This document shows, piece after piece, positions 563 through 56,557 of a stretch of 64,000 nt of DNA (positions are counted from its first letter, which is position 1; the number at the start of each line of letters is the position of its first letter). The DNA is taken from assembly GCA_964408235.1 (NCBI GenBank), contig CAYOYN010000002.1:44459-108458 (forward strand), read 5' to 3'. Below the pieces are notes generated by a model. It had not been told where the DNA came from and searched no databases. It worked only from the letters and a program-made list of their open reading frames with translations. Both the position numbers and the translations under genes were made by a program. Source of the stretch: Candidatus Woesearchaeota archaeon (GTDB lineage Archaea; Nanobdellota; Nanobdellia; Pacearchaeales; GW2011-AR1).

Positions 563-637
563 GCTCCCGTAGCTCAGCCTGGATAGAGCATCGGACTTCT
601 AATCCGAGGGTCGTAGGTTCAAATCCTATCGGGAGCG
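563..637 (+). tRNA. tRNA-Arg (anticodon TCT)
   Basis: Cloverleaf folds by hand: acceptor GCTCCCG/CGGGAGC, D arm GCTC..GAGC, anticodon stem TCGGA/TCCGA with loop CTTCTAA, T arm GTAGG-TTCAAAT-CCTAT, discriminator G. No encoded CCA. Confidence 0.85.
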
Positions 638-723
638 TTAACAAGGATTTGAACATCCTGAAGTGAGAAAGTCACTTCAGTCCCTCAAACTTTTCCAAGT
701 CTTGAAGAATCCTATCGGGAGCG
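622..723. repeat. Direct repeat of tRNA-Arg(TCT) 3' end: AATCCTATCGGGAGCG at 622-637 and 708-723, with a hairpin at 658-680
   Basis: 16/16 nt identity seen directly. Between the copies lies a perfect 9-bp inverted repeat, CTGAAGTGA-gaaag-TCACTTCAG. Confidence 0.85.
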
Positions 724-32871: not shown

Positions 32872-34263
32872 TTGCTTATTTTTGATTACATTATGAATAA
32901 ATTAAAATGTGGCCTTGAAATACACACTTATCTTTTGACTAATGAAAAACTTTTTTGTAGATGTAATGCATCTCGTGAGAGGGGACTTGAGCCAAATATC
33001 TTGATTTGTCCAATTTGTACTGGGCAACCTGGTGCAAAACCTATGTCTCCTAATTTAGCTGCTATTGAAAAAGCTGTTAAGATTGCTTTAATGCTTGGGT
33101 GTAAGGTTAACGATGCAATGCCTTGGATGAGGAAGCATTATGACTGGCCTGACTTACCAAAAGGATACCAAAATACCATGAGTGGTGCTCATGCTACTCC
33201 GCTCGGAGTAAATGGCAAATTCGAAGGAATTACTATTGAAAGTATGCACTTGGAAGAAGATCCTGCAAGTTGGGATCCAAAAACTGGATCTGTAGATCAT
33301 AATAGGAGTGGTTTGCCATTAGTTGAAATTGTAACTGCTCCTGAATTTACTTCTGCGGACGAGGTTTATTACTGGGTTAACAAATTAGTTCATGCTTTGA
33401 ATTATCTGAAGGCAATTGACACAAATGCGGGAGTTAAGGCTGATGTTAATGTTTCGATAGTCGATCAAAATGGTAAACAAAAAACTGAAAGGGTCGAAAT
33501 CAAAAATATAACTTCTATTGAAGCTATGAAGTCTGCTGTTCTTTATGAATTTGATAGGCAGATCAAAGAAGGAAGTGTTCGTGAGACTAGAAGATACGAT
33601 GAAGCTAAGGGTATTACTATGAGGATGAGAGGTAAGGAAAAAGAAGATGATTATCGATTTATAGTTGATCCAGATTTAATGTCTGTAAATTTAAAGAAGT
33701 CTTTTATAGATGAACAAAAAAGGTTGATTCCTGAATTGCCAAGCGTTAAACTCGAGAAATTGATTAAGAAATATAAAATAGATTCTATTAATGCTTTAGT
33801 TTTAGCTAGGGATGTTGATATAGTCTCTTTTTTCGAGAAGGTTGCTGAAAAAGTGGAGGGTAAATTTGCTTTACCATGGGTTACTGTGGAACTTCTTAGG
33901 GTTTTGAATTATAACAATAAAAAATTATCTGAAGTTTCTATTTCCGTAGATCATTTCATTAGGTTATTGAATCTGGTTAAAGATAAGAAAATAACTGAAC
34001 TACAAGCTAAACAAATATTGAATAAATTTATTCCTGAAAGTTTTGACCCTTCTAAGACTGAAGGTAAAATTGAAAGTGAAAAAGAACTTGTCCCAATTAT
34101 TTTAAAAGTTTTGAAAGAACAAGAGAAAGTTGTAATTGATTATATTAATGGAGATATTAAGTCTTTTAATTATTTGATTGGGGAAGTTATGAAAGCTACT
34201 AATAGGCGTGCGGATTCCAATGTCGTTCGTAAATTGCTTGAAAAATTAATAAAAAACAAATGA
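32872..34263 (+). CDS. gatB: Asp/Glu-tRNA amidotransferase subunit B
   Basis: GLEIHTYL...KLFCRC...ICPICTGQPGAKP; both Zn-Cys pairs present. 463 aa. Confidence 0.8.
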   Translation: MLIFDYIMNKLKCGLEIHTYLLTNEKLFCRCNASRERGLEPNILICPICTGQPGAKPMSPNLAAIEKAVKIALMLGCKVNDAMPWMRKHYDWPDLPKGYQNTMSGAHATPLGVNGKFEGITIESMHLEEDPASWDPKTGSVDHNRSGLPLVEIVTAPEFTSADEVYYWVNKLVHALNYLKAIDTNAGVKADVNVSIVDQNGKQKTERVEIKNITSIEAMKSAVLYEFDRQIKEGSVRETRRYDEAKGITMRMRGKEKEDDYRFIVDPDLMSVNLKKSFIDEQKRLIPELPSVKLEKLIKKYKIDSINALVLARDVDIVSFFEKVAEKVEGKFALPWVTVELLRVLNYNNKKLSEVSISVDHFIRLLNLVKDKKITELQAKQILNKFIPESFDPSKTEGKIESEKELVPIILKVLKEQEKVVIDYINGDIKSFNYLIGEVMKATNRRADSNVVRKLLEKLIKNK

Positions 34264-34273
34264 CCTCACGAGG
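34261..34273. repeat. Partial copy (12/13 nt) of the tRNA-Arg(TCG) 3' end, 85 bp downstream of that tRNA
   Basis: TGACCTCACGAGG here versus TGACCCCACGAGG at 34359-34371 (the tRNA 3' end on the minus strand). Overlaps the gatB TGA stop codon. Confidence 0.7.
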
Positions 34274-34358
34274 TACTCGCTGATGGACATCATTGGTAAC
34301 TTCAAAACAAGCATATTTTGAAGTAATCCAACCTCTTCTCGGTTCGATTTAAATAAAA

Positions 34359-34431
34359 TGACCCCACGAGGAATCGAACCTCGATCACAGGATCCGAAGT
34401 CCCGTATTCTAATCCATTAAACTATGGGGTC
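34359..34431 (-). tRNA. tRNA-Arg (anticodon TCG)
   Basis: Reverse complement folds: acceptor GACCCCA/TGGGGTC, anticodon stem CGGGA/TCCTG with loop CTTCGGA, T arm CGAGG-TTCGATT-CCTCG, discriminator A. Confidence 0.8.
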
Positions 34432-47891: not shown

Positions 47892-48725
47892 ATGAAAATT
47901 CAGTTTAATCCAAAAACTTTTTTTCTGTTTTCTCTCTTTCTTTTGATAGGAGTCACTTTTATTATTTACCCATTTACTGATTCTAGTAAAAGTATAAGAG
48001 ATTCATACGGTAATTTATTATTCAATCCTACTGAACCATCATTGGGTTCTATGGGGGGGCACTTGAATGCTCCTGGCAGACCTCATGATACAGAAGATAT
48101 TCCAGAGGGATGGATTCATAATGACTTTAAGGGAAATGTTTATGATACCCTAATAGTTCAAGGAAATAGGTTACATAATAACTTTCCTGGAAACCCCTAT
48201 CACACTTTAAGATATCCTCCCGGATACGAACATGTAAACAAACAAACAAGCCCTGATTATACTTATAGGGTAAGCCCGGAACCTGGGAGACATCAAGAAA
48301 AACCCCGACAATTACATAATAACTTTCCTGGAAGACCTGGAGATACTTTAATGTACGACTCTGGAAAAAAACATTATGACTTTCCTGGAAGACCTGGAGA
48401 TACTACCAGACATGAGCCAGATTATGAACATAGTAATTTCCCAGGAAATCCTTATGATACGGACTCAAACCCTCCGGGATGGAAACACAATGATCACGCT
48501 GGCCCGAGCCAAACTTCATCGTATCCTCCTACTTACGAACACAATAGTTTTCCTGGAAGACCTCAGGATACTAGGATGTTTCCTCCAGAATGGAAACATA
48601 ATGATAGACAGGGAAATCAATATGATACTCAGAGATTTCCTCCAGGAAGTAAACATAATAATAGTCCCGGCCCAAGTCAGACTTCTATGAATTGGCAATC
48701 ATCTCAAAACCCGCCTGGAGCTTGA
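47892..48725 (+). CDS. Secreted or membrane-anchored repeat protein with ~7 degenerate FPG(R/N)P-x-DT...PP-x-KHN repeats
   Basis: N-terminal signal/anchor helix, then repeats such as HNNFPGNPYHTLRYPPGYEHVN, HNNFPGRPGDTLMYDSGKKHYD, FPGRPGDTTRHEPDYEHSN, FPGNPYDTDSNPPGWKHNDH, NSFPGRPQDTRMFPPEWKHNDR. Rich in His, Asn, Pro, Gly, Tyr and Asp. Confidence 0.5.
   Translation: MKIQFNPKTFFLFSLFLLIGVTFIIYPFTDSSKSIRDSYGNLLFNPTEPSLGSMGGHLNAPGRPHDTEDIPEGWIHNDFKGNVYDTLIVQGNRLHNNFPGNPYHTLRYPPGYEHVNKQTSPDYTYRVSPEPGRHQEKPRQLHNNFPGRPGDTLMYDSGKKHYDFPGRPGDTTRHEPDYEHSNFPGNPYDTDSNPPGWKHNDHAGPSQTSSYPPTYEHNSFPGRPQDTRMFPPEWKHNDRQGNQYDTQRFPPGSKHNNSPGPSQTSMNWQSSQNPPGA
48170..48700. repeat. Tandem degenerate ~66-bp DNA repeats underlying the protein repeats
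   Basis: For example, ACTTTCCTGGAAGACCTGGAGATACT occurs twice (about 48318 and 48381). The repeats generate spurious ORFs in other frames at 48376-48690 and 48516-48698. Confidence 0.7.
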
Positions 48726-52840: not shown

Positions 52841-53413
52841 TTATTCATATGTAGTAGAATCTTCATATGGGTATTTTCGAGGTTTATTTTTTTCATTCCA
52901 TTTTTCCCAGAATATTTTTCCTTCTAATTCAATTTTTCTTGCTTTCTTTTGTTTTTTGTTTTTTGGATATCCCACAGGAATTATTGCTTCAACTTCCCAA
53001 GAATCTGGAATCTGGAATTTTGATTTAATTTCATGTTCTGAAAATGAACCTATCCAACAAGCACCTAATTCTTGATCTGTTAGGCTTAACAACATATTTT
53101 GTATTGCTGCTCCAGCTTGTTGTTTACCATATATTAGCCCCCTATCTTGATAAAGTTGTTCCAATCTTTTCAATTCAGAACAAACTATTATTATCCATTG
53201 GGCATCATTCATCCAATATTGTTGGCAAAATTCACTCACAAAGTTTTTGTTTTCTTTGGATTCTATTATTATAAATTTTAAATTGTTTATATTTCCTGCA
53301 AAAGGAGCCTGATTTGCTGCATCTATTGCTTCTAAAATTTTATCAAATTTAACTGATTTATTTGAAAAATCTCTTGTGGATATTCTCTTATTTATTGCCT
53401 CTTCTGTTTTCAT
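52841..53413 (-). CDS. Nitroreductase-family protein
   Basis: N-terminal RISTRDF and FMN-binding-region pattern. 190 aa. Confidence 0.6.
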   Translation of the reverse strand: MKTEEAINKRISTRDFSNKSVKFDKILEAIDAANQAPFAGNINNLKFIIIESKENKNFVSEFCQQYWMNDAQWIIIVCSELKRLEQLYQDRGLIYGKQQAGAAIQNMLLSLTDQELGACWIGSFSEHEIKSKFQIPDSWEVEAIIPVGYPKNKKQKKARKIELEGKIFWEKWNEKNKPRKYPYEDSTTYE

Positions 53414-53444: not shown

Positions 53445-54521
53445 TTAGTATGTGATCTCACCGCCGCCAAGCATAATTTTTGATTTGGTGTAGATGACTG
53501 CTGATTGGCCTTCTGCTACACCTTCTATTGGTTTGTTTAAAATTACTTTATTTCCTTTTATTTCTGCTTTATGTAGTTCTCCTAGGTGTCTTATCCTTAC
53601 TAATATCTTAGATGATTTTGGTTTGGCTGAAATATAGTTTATATCTTTAATTTTGAATTCATTTTTCTTTAATGCTGTATGATTTTCTGGTGCTACAATT
53701 AAAATGTTTTTTTTGAGATCTTTACTTGCTATGTAGATTTTTGACTTTACTTTATTTCTATATTCATTATTTATTTGAATGTCTTGATTTTCTCCCAATC
53801 TTTCTCCTATTGTATAAAACATCATTCCATTATGCTTTCCTACGATATTTCCTTCTGGATCTTTTATTATCCCTTGTTTATTTTTTATCTTTTGTTTAAG
53901 GAAGTCTTTTACATCTATATTTCCTACAAAACATAACCCTCTTGTACCTTGTCTATTCCAGTTTTGAAGATTGCTCTTCTTTGCAATATCTCTTACTTCA
54001 CTTTTTGTATATTCGCCTATCGGAAATAATGTGTGTTTAAGATCTTCTTGAGATAGGCCGTATAGAAAATAAGATTGGTCTTTTTTATTATCTTTTGGTA
54101 TTTTTAGATAGAATTTATTTCCTTTTTTTATTTTCTTAATGTAATGGCCTGTTGCTATAAATTGGCATCCAAGCTTTCTTGCTTCAAACCACAGATAAGG
54201 AAATTTTACTATTGTATTACAAGCAGAATCTGGATTAGGGGTTAAACCTCTTGCATAATCTCTAAACATCGGTTTTATTACTTGGTTTGTATATTCTTTT
54301 TCATAATTTAAGGTTATGAATTTTATCCCCAACATGCTTGCTATTTTTTGAGCACTTTTTCTATCTTCTATCCATGGGCATTCTCCCGTAATCTTATTTT
54401 TCTTTTCAGAGAAGCAACGCATAAAAGCTCCTATTACTTCGTAGCCTTGCTTTTGCAAAAGAAGAGCTGCTACGCTTGAGTCTACGCCTCCTGAGAGGCC
54501 TAATAATACTTTTTGTTTCAT
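53445..54521 (-). CDS. mnmA: tRNA 2-thiouridylase, MnmA type (PP-loop ATPase)
   Basis: PP-loop SGGVDSS and MnmA-typical Cys positions. 358 aa. Confidence 0.8.
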   Translation of the reverse strand: MKQKVLLGLSGGVDSSVAALLLQKQGYEVIGAFMRCFSEKKNKITGECPWIEDRKSAQKIASMLGIKFITLNYEKEYTNQVIKPMFRDYARGLTPNPDSACNTIVKFPYLWFEARKLGCQFIATGHYIKKIKKGNKFYLKIPKDNKKDQSYFLYGLSQEDLKHTLFPIGEYTKSEVRDIAKKSNLQNWNRQGTRGLCFVGNIDVKDFLKQKIKNKQGIIKDPEGNIVGKHNGMMFYTIGERLGENQDIQINNEYRNKVKSKIYIASKDLKKNILIVAPENHTALKKNEFKIKDINYISAKPKSSKILVRIRHLGELHKAEIKGNKVILNKPIEGVAEGQSAVIYTKSKIMLGGGEITY

Positions 54522-54560
54522 ATTTAGTTTAGTTTTTTTTAGTATATAAAATATAGAGAA

Positions 54561-54611
54561 ACGTCCCCTGCTGGACTCGACTTGACAAAAGACGTCCCCT
54601 GCTGGACTCGA
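54561..54611. repeat. Perfect 20-nt direct repeat ACGTCCCCTGCTGGACTCGA (54561-54580 and 54592-54611); the second copy is the 3' end of tRNA-Asn
   Basis: 20/20 identity, 11-bp spacer. Seen directly in the sequence. Confidence 0.85.
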
Positions 54612-54665
54612 ACCAGCGACCCCGCGGTTAACAGCCGCGTGCTCTACCTGCTGAGCTAAGAGGAC
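54593..54665 (-). tRNA. tRNA-Asn (anticodon GTT)
   Basis: Reverse complement: acceptor GTCCTCT/AGGGGAC (one G-U pair), anticodon stem CGCGG/CCGCG with loop CTGTTAA, T arm GCTGG-TTCGAGT-CCAGC, discriminator G. Confidence 0.85.
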
Positions 54666-54895
54666 TTGAAAATAAGAGCCATTTTATGTTATTTAAATCT
54701 TGGTTTTATGTCATTTTTGATTAATTTTTATTTGAAATTTTATTTTTTAATTTTTTTAAGAAAATTTTCTATTATTTTTTCTCGACGATAAATTATTTAT
54801 CTAAAATTAAAAAATTATTTTTTTTGAAAAATTCTGCATAGTTTTAAATATAAGTTTGTATATTTTATTTTAAAGAGGTATATGATAGAGTGGCA

Positions 54896-54982
54896 ATGAA
54901 AAAGGCTAAGAAATCTGCAAAAAGATCTTCTGTAAAGAAATCTTCGAAAAGATCTAGCAAGTCAAAGGCTAAACGCAGATAA
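54896..54982 (+). CDS. Possible 28-aa Lys/Ser/Arg-rich peptide
   Basis: MKKAKKSAKRSSVKKSSKRSSKSKAKRR. Very short, sits in a 230-bp AT-rich spacer, and could be a non-coding accident. Confidence 0.2.
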   Translation: MKKAKKSAKRSSVKKSSKRSSKSKAKRR

Positions 54983-56383: not shown

Positions 56384-56557
56384 TTACTTCAGCTTTGCTG
56401 CAGCGTCTTTGCCTACTACTTTCCAACATTCGTGTGTACCAGCAGGGGACTTTGCAACAATGAAGAATCTTCCGCTTCTTTCTACTAATTTATAGTCATC
56501 AGTACTAAATTTGTTTTTAGTCTTAACGTCGTAGAATTCTTGTTTCGGTTTAGCCAT
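56384..56557 (-). CDS. Small 57-aa basic protein of unknown function
   Basis: MAKPKQEFYDVKTKNKFSTDDYKLVERSGRFFIVAKSPAGTHECWKVVGKDAAAKLK. GGAGGT Shine-Dalgarno 7 nt upstream. Absent from the ORF track because it is under 60 aa. Confidence 0.4.
   Translation of the reverse strand: MAKPKQEFYDVKTKNKFSTDDYKLVERSGRFFIVAKSPAGTHECWKVVGKDAAAKLK

Follow-up and report, generated by a model that had tools for sequence, protein, structure and literature searches.

The tRNA-Asn(GTT) gene in the 64-kb stretch of archaeal DNA analysed here (hereafter the window) is followed by a partial copy of its own 3′ end which, to judge from the empty site of a relative, is a species-specific insertion of 31 bp made up of an 11-nt filler and a 20-nt repeat. 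We tentatively favour, at somewhat less than an even chance, the reading that this insertion is a break-and-repair scar in the T-loop DNA of the gene, likely triggered by a tRNA-targeting mobile-element enzyme and devoid of function.

The repeat, ACGTCCCCTGCTGGACTCGA on the plus strand, occurs at 54561-54580 and at 54592-54611. Exact searching returned the two copies as a perfect 20-nt direct repeat, as the initial annotation had reported, and four assemblies of this species obtained independently (L001-L004) carry the duplication unchanged, which excludes an assembly artefact. No third match with up to 3 mismatches was found on either strand of the window, and none appeared in 100 dinucleotide shuffles. 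The tRNA gene itself lies on the minus strand at 54593-54665 and was placed by ARAGORN and Rfam (RF00005, 67.5 bits). It is intact, has neither an intron nor an encoded CCA, and is identical in sequence to its counterpart in the single-copy reference L016, a Woesearchaeota MAG with ~89% average nucleotide identity (ANI) to the window. This placement bears out the earlier description of the second copy as the last 19 nt of the tRNA plus one flanking base, with 11 bp of spacer. On the minus strand, the proximal copy (X1, 54592-54611) comprises tRNA positions 55-73 (19 nt) plus one trailer T, and the repeat accordingly starts at T55, the second base of the T-loop, and ends 1 base beyond the discriminator. 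The 11-nt filler (54581-54591, minus strand), which reads CTTTTGTCAAG on that strand and contains a T4 run, is unrelated to the ancestral trailer and its source was not found. The distal copy (X2, 54561-54580, minus strand), a perfect 20 nt from T55, abuts without a gap the ancestral tRNA trailer (54522-54560, minus strand), which doubles as the promoter region of MnmA and holds a TTTTATATA box ~24 nt 5′ of the ATG. The minus-strand order is the tRNA ending in TCGAGTCCAGCAGGGGACGT, then CTTTTGTCAAG, TCGAGTCCAGCAGGGGACGT, the sequence beginning TTCTCTATATTTTATATAC, and the MnmA ATG. On the other side of the tRNA gene, the AT-rich stretch of ~230 bp described previously does have only 16% GC (54666-54895/6), but a 28-codon basic ORF begins at its edge, at 54896.

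Relatives were collected through the 19-nt tRNA segment, which gave 13 related archaeal loci (one genome per species) and ~35 metagenome loci. In L016, the identical tRNA-Asn is followed directly by TTTCTCTATATTTTATATACTAAAAAAAACTAAACTAAATATG and only one copy of the repeat is present. The sequence after the tRNA in L016 matches that after X2 in the window, comprising the trailer and the first MnmA codons, at 45 of 45 positions, and it is this single copy followed by the same 45 nt that identifies the 31 bp as an insertion. The insertion is young, as it is present in all strains at ~99% ANI and absent at ~89% ANI; all three tRNA insertions of the window (see below) are carried by every strain of the species. 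The initial annotation had taken the repeat for the surviving edge of an old insertion whose other end had been lost. Both ends are present, 31 bp apart, and the event is young.

Downstream of the insertion, NCBIfam and Pfam matches on the minus strand agree with the earlier identification of MnmA, the tRNA 2-thiouridine(34) synthase (53445-54521; NCBIfam equivalog, 362 bits against a cut-off of 284; Pfam tRNA_Me_trans, 5e-71), and of a nitroreductase (52841-53413; Pfam, 3.5e-27). The archaeal identity of the genome follows from its genes for MCM, aIF-2 beta, aIF-1A, deoxyhypusine synthase, FtsZ, TBP and TFE. The initial annotation took the two bacterial-type genes for part of a possible horizontally acquired island, one boundary of which would be marked by the duplication and the other lost. 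MnmA does belong to a bacterial-type family (NCBIfam equivalog) and the repeat is att-like. However, L016 keeps the order tRNA-MnmA-nitroreductase-FtsZ with a single copy, so that the synteny comparison suggested by the annotation speaks against its own island. In 20 other single-copy loci of Woese-, Pace- and Nanoarchaeota (DPANN), MnmA is likewise found no more than 700 nt downstream of tRNA-Asn, no step in identity at the tRNA was seen in the comparison of the window with L016, and the insertion of 31 bp is younger than the gene order. Because the tRNA-Asn to MnmA arrangement recurs in these 20 DPANN loci, MnmA appears to be old and vertically inherited beside tRNA-Asn. The conserved order and the lack of an identity step likewise argue that both genes are long-standing residents rather than cargo, and that the repeat is not an island boundary. 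We consider the island reading almost certainly wrong. What stands of the att-like intuition behind it is the anatomy, a segment from the T-loop to the 3′ end with a displaced copy downstream; no full element lies between the copies.

The initial annotation had counted three tRNA 3′ duplications in the window, that of tRNA-Asn being the cleanest, and this count holds, with an 18-nt repeat at tRNA-Arg(TCT) and a 16-nt repeat with 1 mismatch at tRNA-Arg(TCG). The tRNA-Arg(TCT) gene (563-637, plus strand; ARAGORN and Rfam) carries the proximal copy AATCCTATCGGGAGCGTT, which extends from A58 to 2 nt beyond the tRNA end (622-639). The 68-nt filler (640-707) opens with the conserved trailer motif AAGGATTTGAACAT, which is an inverted T-loop copy, and continues into a perfect 9-bp hairpin. 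The distal copy (708-725) is identical at 18 of 18 positions and is absent from the relative L075, where tRNA-Arg(TCT) and PadR lie ~40 nt apart without a second copy. All three of these features are on the plus strand. The tRNA-Arg(TCG) gene (34359-34431, minus strand; ARAGORN and Rfam) carries the proximal copy CCTCGTGGGGTCATTT, from C61 to 3 nt beyond the tRNA end (34356-34371). It is followed on the minus strand by an 82-nt filler (34274-34355), which folds together with the adjoining distal copy into three hairpins (z = -4.6), and by the 16-nt distal copy CCTCGTGAGGTCATTT (34258-34273), which differs at 1 position and contains the GatB stop codon (34261-34263). In L080, L081 and L084, tRNA-Arg(TCG) runs directly into the trailer found after the distal copy of the window, with no second copy (L081 and L016 are the same genome). 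The point mutation seen in the Arg(TCG) distal copy differs from strain to strain (TGAGGTC, TGTGGTC and TGGAGTC against TGGGGTC), which indicates that this copy, apparently descended from a perfect one, is decaying; it is unconstrained. Two further candidate tRNA fragments in the window, 12-mers at 56439 and 63380, lie within coding sequence and were set aside.

The duplications are concentrated at tRNA genes. Three of the five tRNA genes in the window are scarred, compared to none of 13 bystander tRNA genes in relatives (Fisher p = 0.012). Leaving low-complexity sequence aside, the 64 kb hold just two perfect short-range direct repeats, both at tRNA 3′ ends; tRNA genes make up 0.6% of the window, and the chance of both repeats landing there is ~3e-5. 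Independent tRNA-Asn events were found in other lineages, namely L028/L034/L062 (three copies, 29-nt period), L039 (26-nt repeat, 31-nt period, the repeat running 6 nt into the trailer) and L048 (22-nt repeat, 30-nt period). Repeat lengths are 16, 18, 20, 22, 22 and 26 nt, the perfect repeats being identical at 20/20, 18/18, 22/22 and 26/26 positions, and the periods of the Asn type fall within 29-31 nt. The boundaries are sharp: the distal copy starts at tRNA position 54, 54, 54, 55, 58 or 61, in or at the edge of the T-loop, and ends 1-6 nt beyond the tRNA. Among 81 tRNA instances, every extra copy lay downstream, on the same strand and within 101 nt, and no upstream, inverted or long-range extra copy was found. 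No full element was found between copies in ~90 loci or in the same 81 instances. The duplications of L039 and L048 appear to be orthologous, with an unchanged distal copy between diverged flanks; conservation, conversion or recurrence may account for this.

The fillers bear directly on how the copies arose. In the window, the 12 nt between the two Asn 19-mers (TCTTTTGTCAAG) and the trailer (TTTCTCTATATT) agree at 4 of 12 positions, and the corresponding comparisons for Arg(TCT) and Arg(TCG) gave 18/70 and 28/85. An X-Y-X-Y layout, with the spacer repeated after the second copy, is not seen in the window and is approached in L028 and L039 only. Since its filler is unlike the trailer, the window repeat is not a product of simple slippage. 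Local slippage, the fallback of the initial annotation, is also at variance with the recurrence of duplications at the T-loops of different tRNAs. In a broader form of this explanation, fork stalling, an R-loop or a hairpin at a GC-rich, highly transcribed tRNA gene would lead to slippage or template switching as a spontaneous error of replication or repair. L028 is close to what such an error would give, a plain tandem triplication whose 29-nt unit combines the 3′ part of the tRNA with ~8 nt of the trailer that belongs to it, and the 6 trailer nt within the L039 repeat point the same way. The tRNA genes are islands of 64% GC in a genome of 33% GC, no mobile-element gene lies nearby, and the Arg(TCG) filler holds an inverted 9-nt T-loop copy (p = 0.019) as snap-back synthesis would give. 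On the other hand, the window fillers are neither related to the trailers nor built from local sequence, and a constant process predicts neither three of five against none of 13 nor a sharp T-loop boundary across different tRNAs. We therefore regard a spontaneous error as rather unlikely for the window.

Two matches give an indication of what the fillers are. In L032, a relative with a single copy, the trailer opens with the very sequence of the L028 spacer (TTCTATTC). The Arg(TCT) filler opens with AAGGATTTGAACAT, which agrees with the L075 trailer at 14 of 14 positions; after the distal copy, only a diverged version of the motif is present. On the strength of these matches the fillers look like continuations of tRNA loci, the cell's own in L028 and one from another source in the window. 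Inverted T-loop copies lie 7-10 nt past both Arg tRNAs; that of Arg(TCT) spans 11 nt (p = 0.001) and is also present in L075, and the 9-nt copy of Arg(TCG) lies within the new filler, 10 nt from the tRNA. No donor of the fillers was found in the DNA examined, no filler matched a viral contig in IMG/VR, and the filler ends showed no significant inverted or direct similarity, that is, no terminal inverted repeats. Several other origins were considered and rejected. A decayed second whole tRNA is not compatible with the fillers, which are unlike the tRNA 5′ part and the upstream flank in either orientation (p = 0.5-0.84); a resemblance of the Asn filler junction to the upstream flank of the tRNA (10/13 by eye) was not reproduced in L028 or L039. 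Coverage of the fillers by patchworks of local sequence was the same as for shuffles, and each filler occurs once in the window, which speaks against a repeat family or a MITE. As to a C/D-box sRNA in the Arg fillers, inspection by eye gave one C-box-like heptamer and no D box.

The anatomy of the duplications is shared with attL/attR pairs in tRNA genes, in which the repeated 3′ part starts in the T-loop, the intact tRNA lies upstream, the partial copy lies downstream and is followed by the native trailer, and empty sites exist. The insertions could accordingly be remnants of classical integrative elements. A virus or plasmid would have integrated through a tyrosine integrase that crosses over within the T-loop; its attP would have supplied X1 and the first part of the filler, X2 would be the displaced resident 3′ end (attR), and the body of the element would later have been almost wholly deleted. 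An identity block from the T-loop to the 3′ end is the standard att anatomy (Williams 2002, cited in PMC9897764; Islander, PMC4383910), and the resident trailer after X2, the empty sites in relatives and the non-local fillers are all in keeping with it. L082 and L083 have the tRNA-Arg(TCG) gene in inverted orientation, and Thermococcales provide examples of rearrangements driven by integrases at tRNA genes (PMC5495485). However, the copies in the window are separated by just 11, 68 and 82 nt instead of a 5-25 kb element with an integrase, and for published tRNA fragments the distance to the parent tRNA is 9-23 kb (PMC9897764). The explanation would require three independent elements to have lost >99% of their length, each with its distal copy spared, within the divergence from 89% to 99% ANI. 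No attP-bearing element and no full element were found in the loci and tRNA instances surveyed, and no integrase was found in the window. Moreover, the L028 spacer is the host's own trailer and the identity in L039 runs 6 nt into the host trailer. The Asn and Arg(TCG) segments had 0 matches in IMG/VR, the sampling of viruses from these archaea being poor; the matches to the Arg(TCT) segment, evaluated as attP candidates, were chance matches or phage tRNA-Arg(CCT) genes. Remnants of integrative elements are thus an unlikely explanation, though one that we take seriously.

Transposon-like target-site duplication would also yield long, perfect repeats. Staggered cuts in the T-loop and past the tRNA end by a casposon or a miniature derivative, followed by excision or collapse of the element, would leave two target-site duplications (TSDs) flanking a footprint. 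[quoted passage not shown] The perfect copies that include trailer bases are what fill-in of staggered cuts predicts, and the 29-31 nt periods of the Asn type are tight. The fillers nevertheless lack terminal inverted repeats, no Cas1, PolB or transposase gene and no element was found, and the repeats differ in length (16 to 26 nt). Over its first 19 nt the Arg(TCT) filler resembles an ordinary trailer, and casposase-mediated excision and a 'footprint' are absent from the casposon paper (PMC4779613). This origin is, in our view, improbable.

Relatives carry candidate endonuclease genes at the very 3′ flank of tRNA-Asn. An ORF of ~100 codons with CxxC...HH...CxxCH motifs lies directly after tRNA-Asn in L023, L024, L030 and L047, as HNH homologues with 68-71% identity. 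The HNH-like ORF of the L051 type matches Pfam HNH only marginally (E = 5e-4; 20.5 bits, the cut-off being 21.4) and has no NCBIfam match. L047 and L058 differ by a ~400-bp HNH cassette, present in one and missing in the other. In L051, the order is a tRNA-Asn of a different type (tRNA-Asn′), the HNH-like gene, an orphan fragment of the standard tRNA-Asn starting at T54, and then a trailer of the native type with the native downstream genes. The tRNA-Asn′ is complete, and its acceptor and T stems are internally co-adapted. To judge from this arrangement, demonstrably foreign DNA has been joined to the resident gene at the T-loop position at which the short duplications begin. The L051 contig ends 7 nt upstream of tRNA-Asn′, and L051 could alternatively be the right end of a larger integrated element, its junction then being an attR as in the integrase-based explanation above. 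In the window itself, Pfam analysis of ~40 ORFs returned housekeeping genes only, with no endonuclease, integrase, transposase, Cas1 or reverse transcriptase gene, and tblastn found no HNH homologue.

These loci resemble known homing endonuclease loci, that is, SegB of phages T4 and T6 and the HNH genes of Patescibacteria with tRNA-Asn group I introns, in that a mobile HNH-like gene follows tRNA-Asn in relatives, in many cases together with a group I intron at 35/36. They differ in that the window has no such gene or intron, and the repeated unit is 29-98 bp compared to ~700 bp for SegB. SegB, a free-standing homing endonuclease, makes double-strand breaks in the phage tRNA region that result in tandem segmental amplification (PMC13096335), so that endonuclease breaks in a tRNA region are known to give tandem duplications.

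The break-and-repair scar that we favour would form in three steps. The DNA of the tRNA gene would first be broken in the stretch encoding the T-loop. A homologous tRNA template would then serve to re-extend the upstream end, past the tRNA 3′ end and for another 1 to ~85 nt into the template's own trailer; this template may be the sister chromosome, the allele of another strain or a copy on a mobile element. Finally, the extended end would be joined without homology to the downstream end, which still begins at the T-loop. Only products restoring an intact copy of this single-copy, essential tRNA would survive, and this would account for extra copies being without exception partial, downstream and on the same strand. 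The perfect copies, one of which extends 6 nt into the trailer, fit copying from a homologous tRNA locus. The breaking agent would most likely be a mobile-element enzyme aimed at tRNA genes, given the HNH gene cassette at the exact 3′ flank of tRNA-Asn in relatives; such a trigger would also fit the burst of duplications in one species (three of five against none of 13) and the SegB precedent.

The proposed scar has a close formal parallel in homology-facilitated illegitimate recombination and in synthesis-dependent repair coupled to end joining, where one junction is homologous (here in the tRNA) and the other is not. As in these processes, the filler continues like a foreign trailer and recipient sequence is kept at the break; unlike in them, the non-homologous junction is fixed at the T-loop and not scattered. 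We know of no demonstration of either process in archaea of this clade, nor of homology-independent end joining in these archaea. Other observations also weigh against a scar. No candidate enzyme gene was found in the window, and no donor of the fillers was found. Three different tRNAs have been hit, so that more than one enzyme, or a single one recognising the T-loop box that they share, would be needed. Finally, the distal copy conserved in L039 and L048 between diverged flanks is not what a neutral scar predicts.

The distal copy could instead have a function, serving the pre-tRNA as another 3′ end or as a partner in folding, acting as a processing or termination signal, or being a decoy for tRNA-targeting enzymes; its identity in L039 and L048 between diverged flanks would fit this. 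L028 retains three perfect copies, and in the minimum free energy structure predicted by RNAfold for the tRNA with filler and X2 (-42.8 kcal/mol), the distal copy base-pairs with the 5′ half. On the other side, the copy is absent from the closest relatives, which have an identical tRNA and promoter, the Arg(TCG) distal copy is mutating differently in each strain, and the T4 run in the Asn filler probably ends most transcripts before X2 is reached. A function of the distal copy is therefore highly improbable. A bulge-helix-bulge intron or a split tRNA was rejected, as RNAfold gave 1-nt bulges and a 5-bp UCGA-based helix and the tRNA is complete without the insert.

The T-loop boundary could also reflect RNA. 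Archaeal tRNAs carry the T-loop modifications m1Psi54, Cm56 and m1A57/58. In a retro-duplication, a nick in the A-run opposite the trailer T-run would prime reverse transcription of an unprocessed pre-tRNA from its U-tail, synthesis would stop at the modified T-loop, possibly with a jump to another RNA that became the filler, and the cDNA would be joined back. This would explain the restriction to tRNA genes, the absence of CCA, the 1-3 T's that follow both copies, the start at positions 54-61 and the seamless join to the trailer. No reverse transcriptase was seen in the window, and we give this route only a very small chance. If it proved right, processed-pseudogene-like retrocopying would be described in an archaeon for the first time.

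Mobile DNA is well known to duplicate parts of tRNA 3′ ends, and the duplications described here are a variant of this. They are unusual in being miniature (periods of 29-98 bp), free of an element, recurrent at several tRNAs of one species and sharply bounded at the T-loop. Such repeats alone should not be used to call island boundaries or horizontal transfer; here, two vertically inherited genes would be mislabelled. They do offer a countable signature, a tRNA 3′ segment repeated within ~100 bp, which could be used across thousands of MAGs to map the proposed activity at tRNA genes and to find the enzyme behind it. If the insertions are indeed break-and-repair scars, a T-loop-directed activity would have hit several tRNA genes of one species within a short time, and these micro-duplications would record where tRNA genes are broken, and how they are mended, in ultra-small DPANN archaea.

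The flank of tRNA-Arg(TCG) is a rearrangement hot spot among relatives of the window (L082:5001-5073, L083:3901-3973 and L092:1999-2581). A single-gene inversion places tRNA-Arg(TCG) in the opposite orientation in two of them (L082 and L083), and a two-gene cassette, encoding a 65-aa ORF and a nucleotidyltransferase-fold protein, is inserted between GatB and the tRNA gene in L082 and L092. The partial second copy of the tRNA 3′ part, or distal copy (window 34258-34273, also in L085-L089), carries a differing single substitution in its G-run in each strain group (~99% ANI). In the window, GatB terminates inside this copy (stop codon at 34261-34263), and the gene has two codons more than its counterparts in relatives.

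Downstream of tRNA-Arg(TCT), 7 nt past the gene, 11 nt of the T-loop and T-stem recur as an inverted copy (AAGGATTTGAAC; window 643-654). It is kept in L075 (3194-3207), a relative at ~79% ANI lacking the second tRNA copy, despite an altered acceptor stem (p = 0.001). The element might be a trailer hairpin under conservation or a protein-binding site.

Around tRNA-Asn(GTT), the window was compared with L016, a relative at ~89% ANI carrying the empty site. The AT-rich spacer upstream of the tRNA and its small ORF (54666-54982) are 95-96% identical to L016, compared with ~90% for the flanking protein genes; this difference suggests that the segment holds a small gene or a regulatory sequence under constraint. 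The ORF (54896-54982) has 28 codons and is rich in lysine and serine (MKKAKKSAKRSS...). MnmA shows just 70-80% identity to L016 from its middle to its C-terminus (53445-54300); its neighbours show 88-100%, with FtsZ nearly identical. No sharp identity boundary was seen within this MnmA region in the comparison with L016. The low identity could mean that constraint on MnmA has relaxed or that alleles were exchanged at an earlier time. Elsewhere in the window, a 41-nt unit (..ACATAATAACTTTCCTGGAAGACC..) occurs in four imperfect copies (48166-48572) within a 277-aa ORF (47892-48725), whose product is presumably a repeat protein.

A tRNA-Asn duplication is common to two related groundwater or metagenome lineages (L039:5639-5688 and L048:14638-14686). 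The distal copy (22-26 nt) is identical between them; the spacer separating the two copies has diverged, and the downstream intergenic sequence especially so. Conservation, conversion or recurrence could each account for an unchanged copy beside diverged flanks.

In other genomes an HNH-like ORF of ~100 aa, with CxxC..HH..CxxCH motifs and a marginal Pfam HNH match, lies directly downstream of tRNA-Asn (L051:986-1300, minus strand; also L023, L024, L030 and L047). In L051 the tRNA-Asn that it accompanies is divergent and lacks an intron, and an orphan piece of the standard tRNA-Asn 3′ end comes after the ORF. Between the close relatives L047 and L058, the HNH-like ORF forms a ~400-bp presence/absence polymorphism.

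Short introns at position 37/38, directly 3′ of the anticodon, interrupt many of the clade's tRNA-Asn genes (L014, L015, L020, L022, L031, L035, L038, L052, L053, L059, L063 and L066-L072) and differ greatly in length and sequence; the window gene has none. ARAGORN assigns wrong names to several of these intron-bearing genes. Several Woese- and Nanoarchaeota contigs harbour a group I intron inside tRNA-Asn(GTT) (L024:1400-1618 and L058:5228-5564, both minus strand; also L023, L030, L033, L047 and L057), scoring 73-77 bits against Rfam RF00028 (threshold 50). These introns interrupt the anticodon loop at position 35/36; both the gene and the position are those reported for a group I intron in Patescibacteria (PMC13011429). 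Since all 39 archaeal group I introns of a 2018 survey were in rRNA genes (PMC6125680), tRNA-hosted group I introns may be previously unreported in archaea. CPR bacteria and DPANN archaea could also have exchanged these introns.
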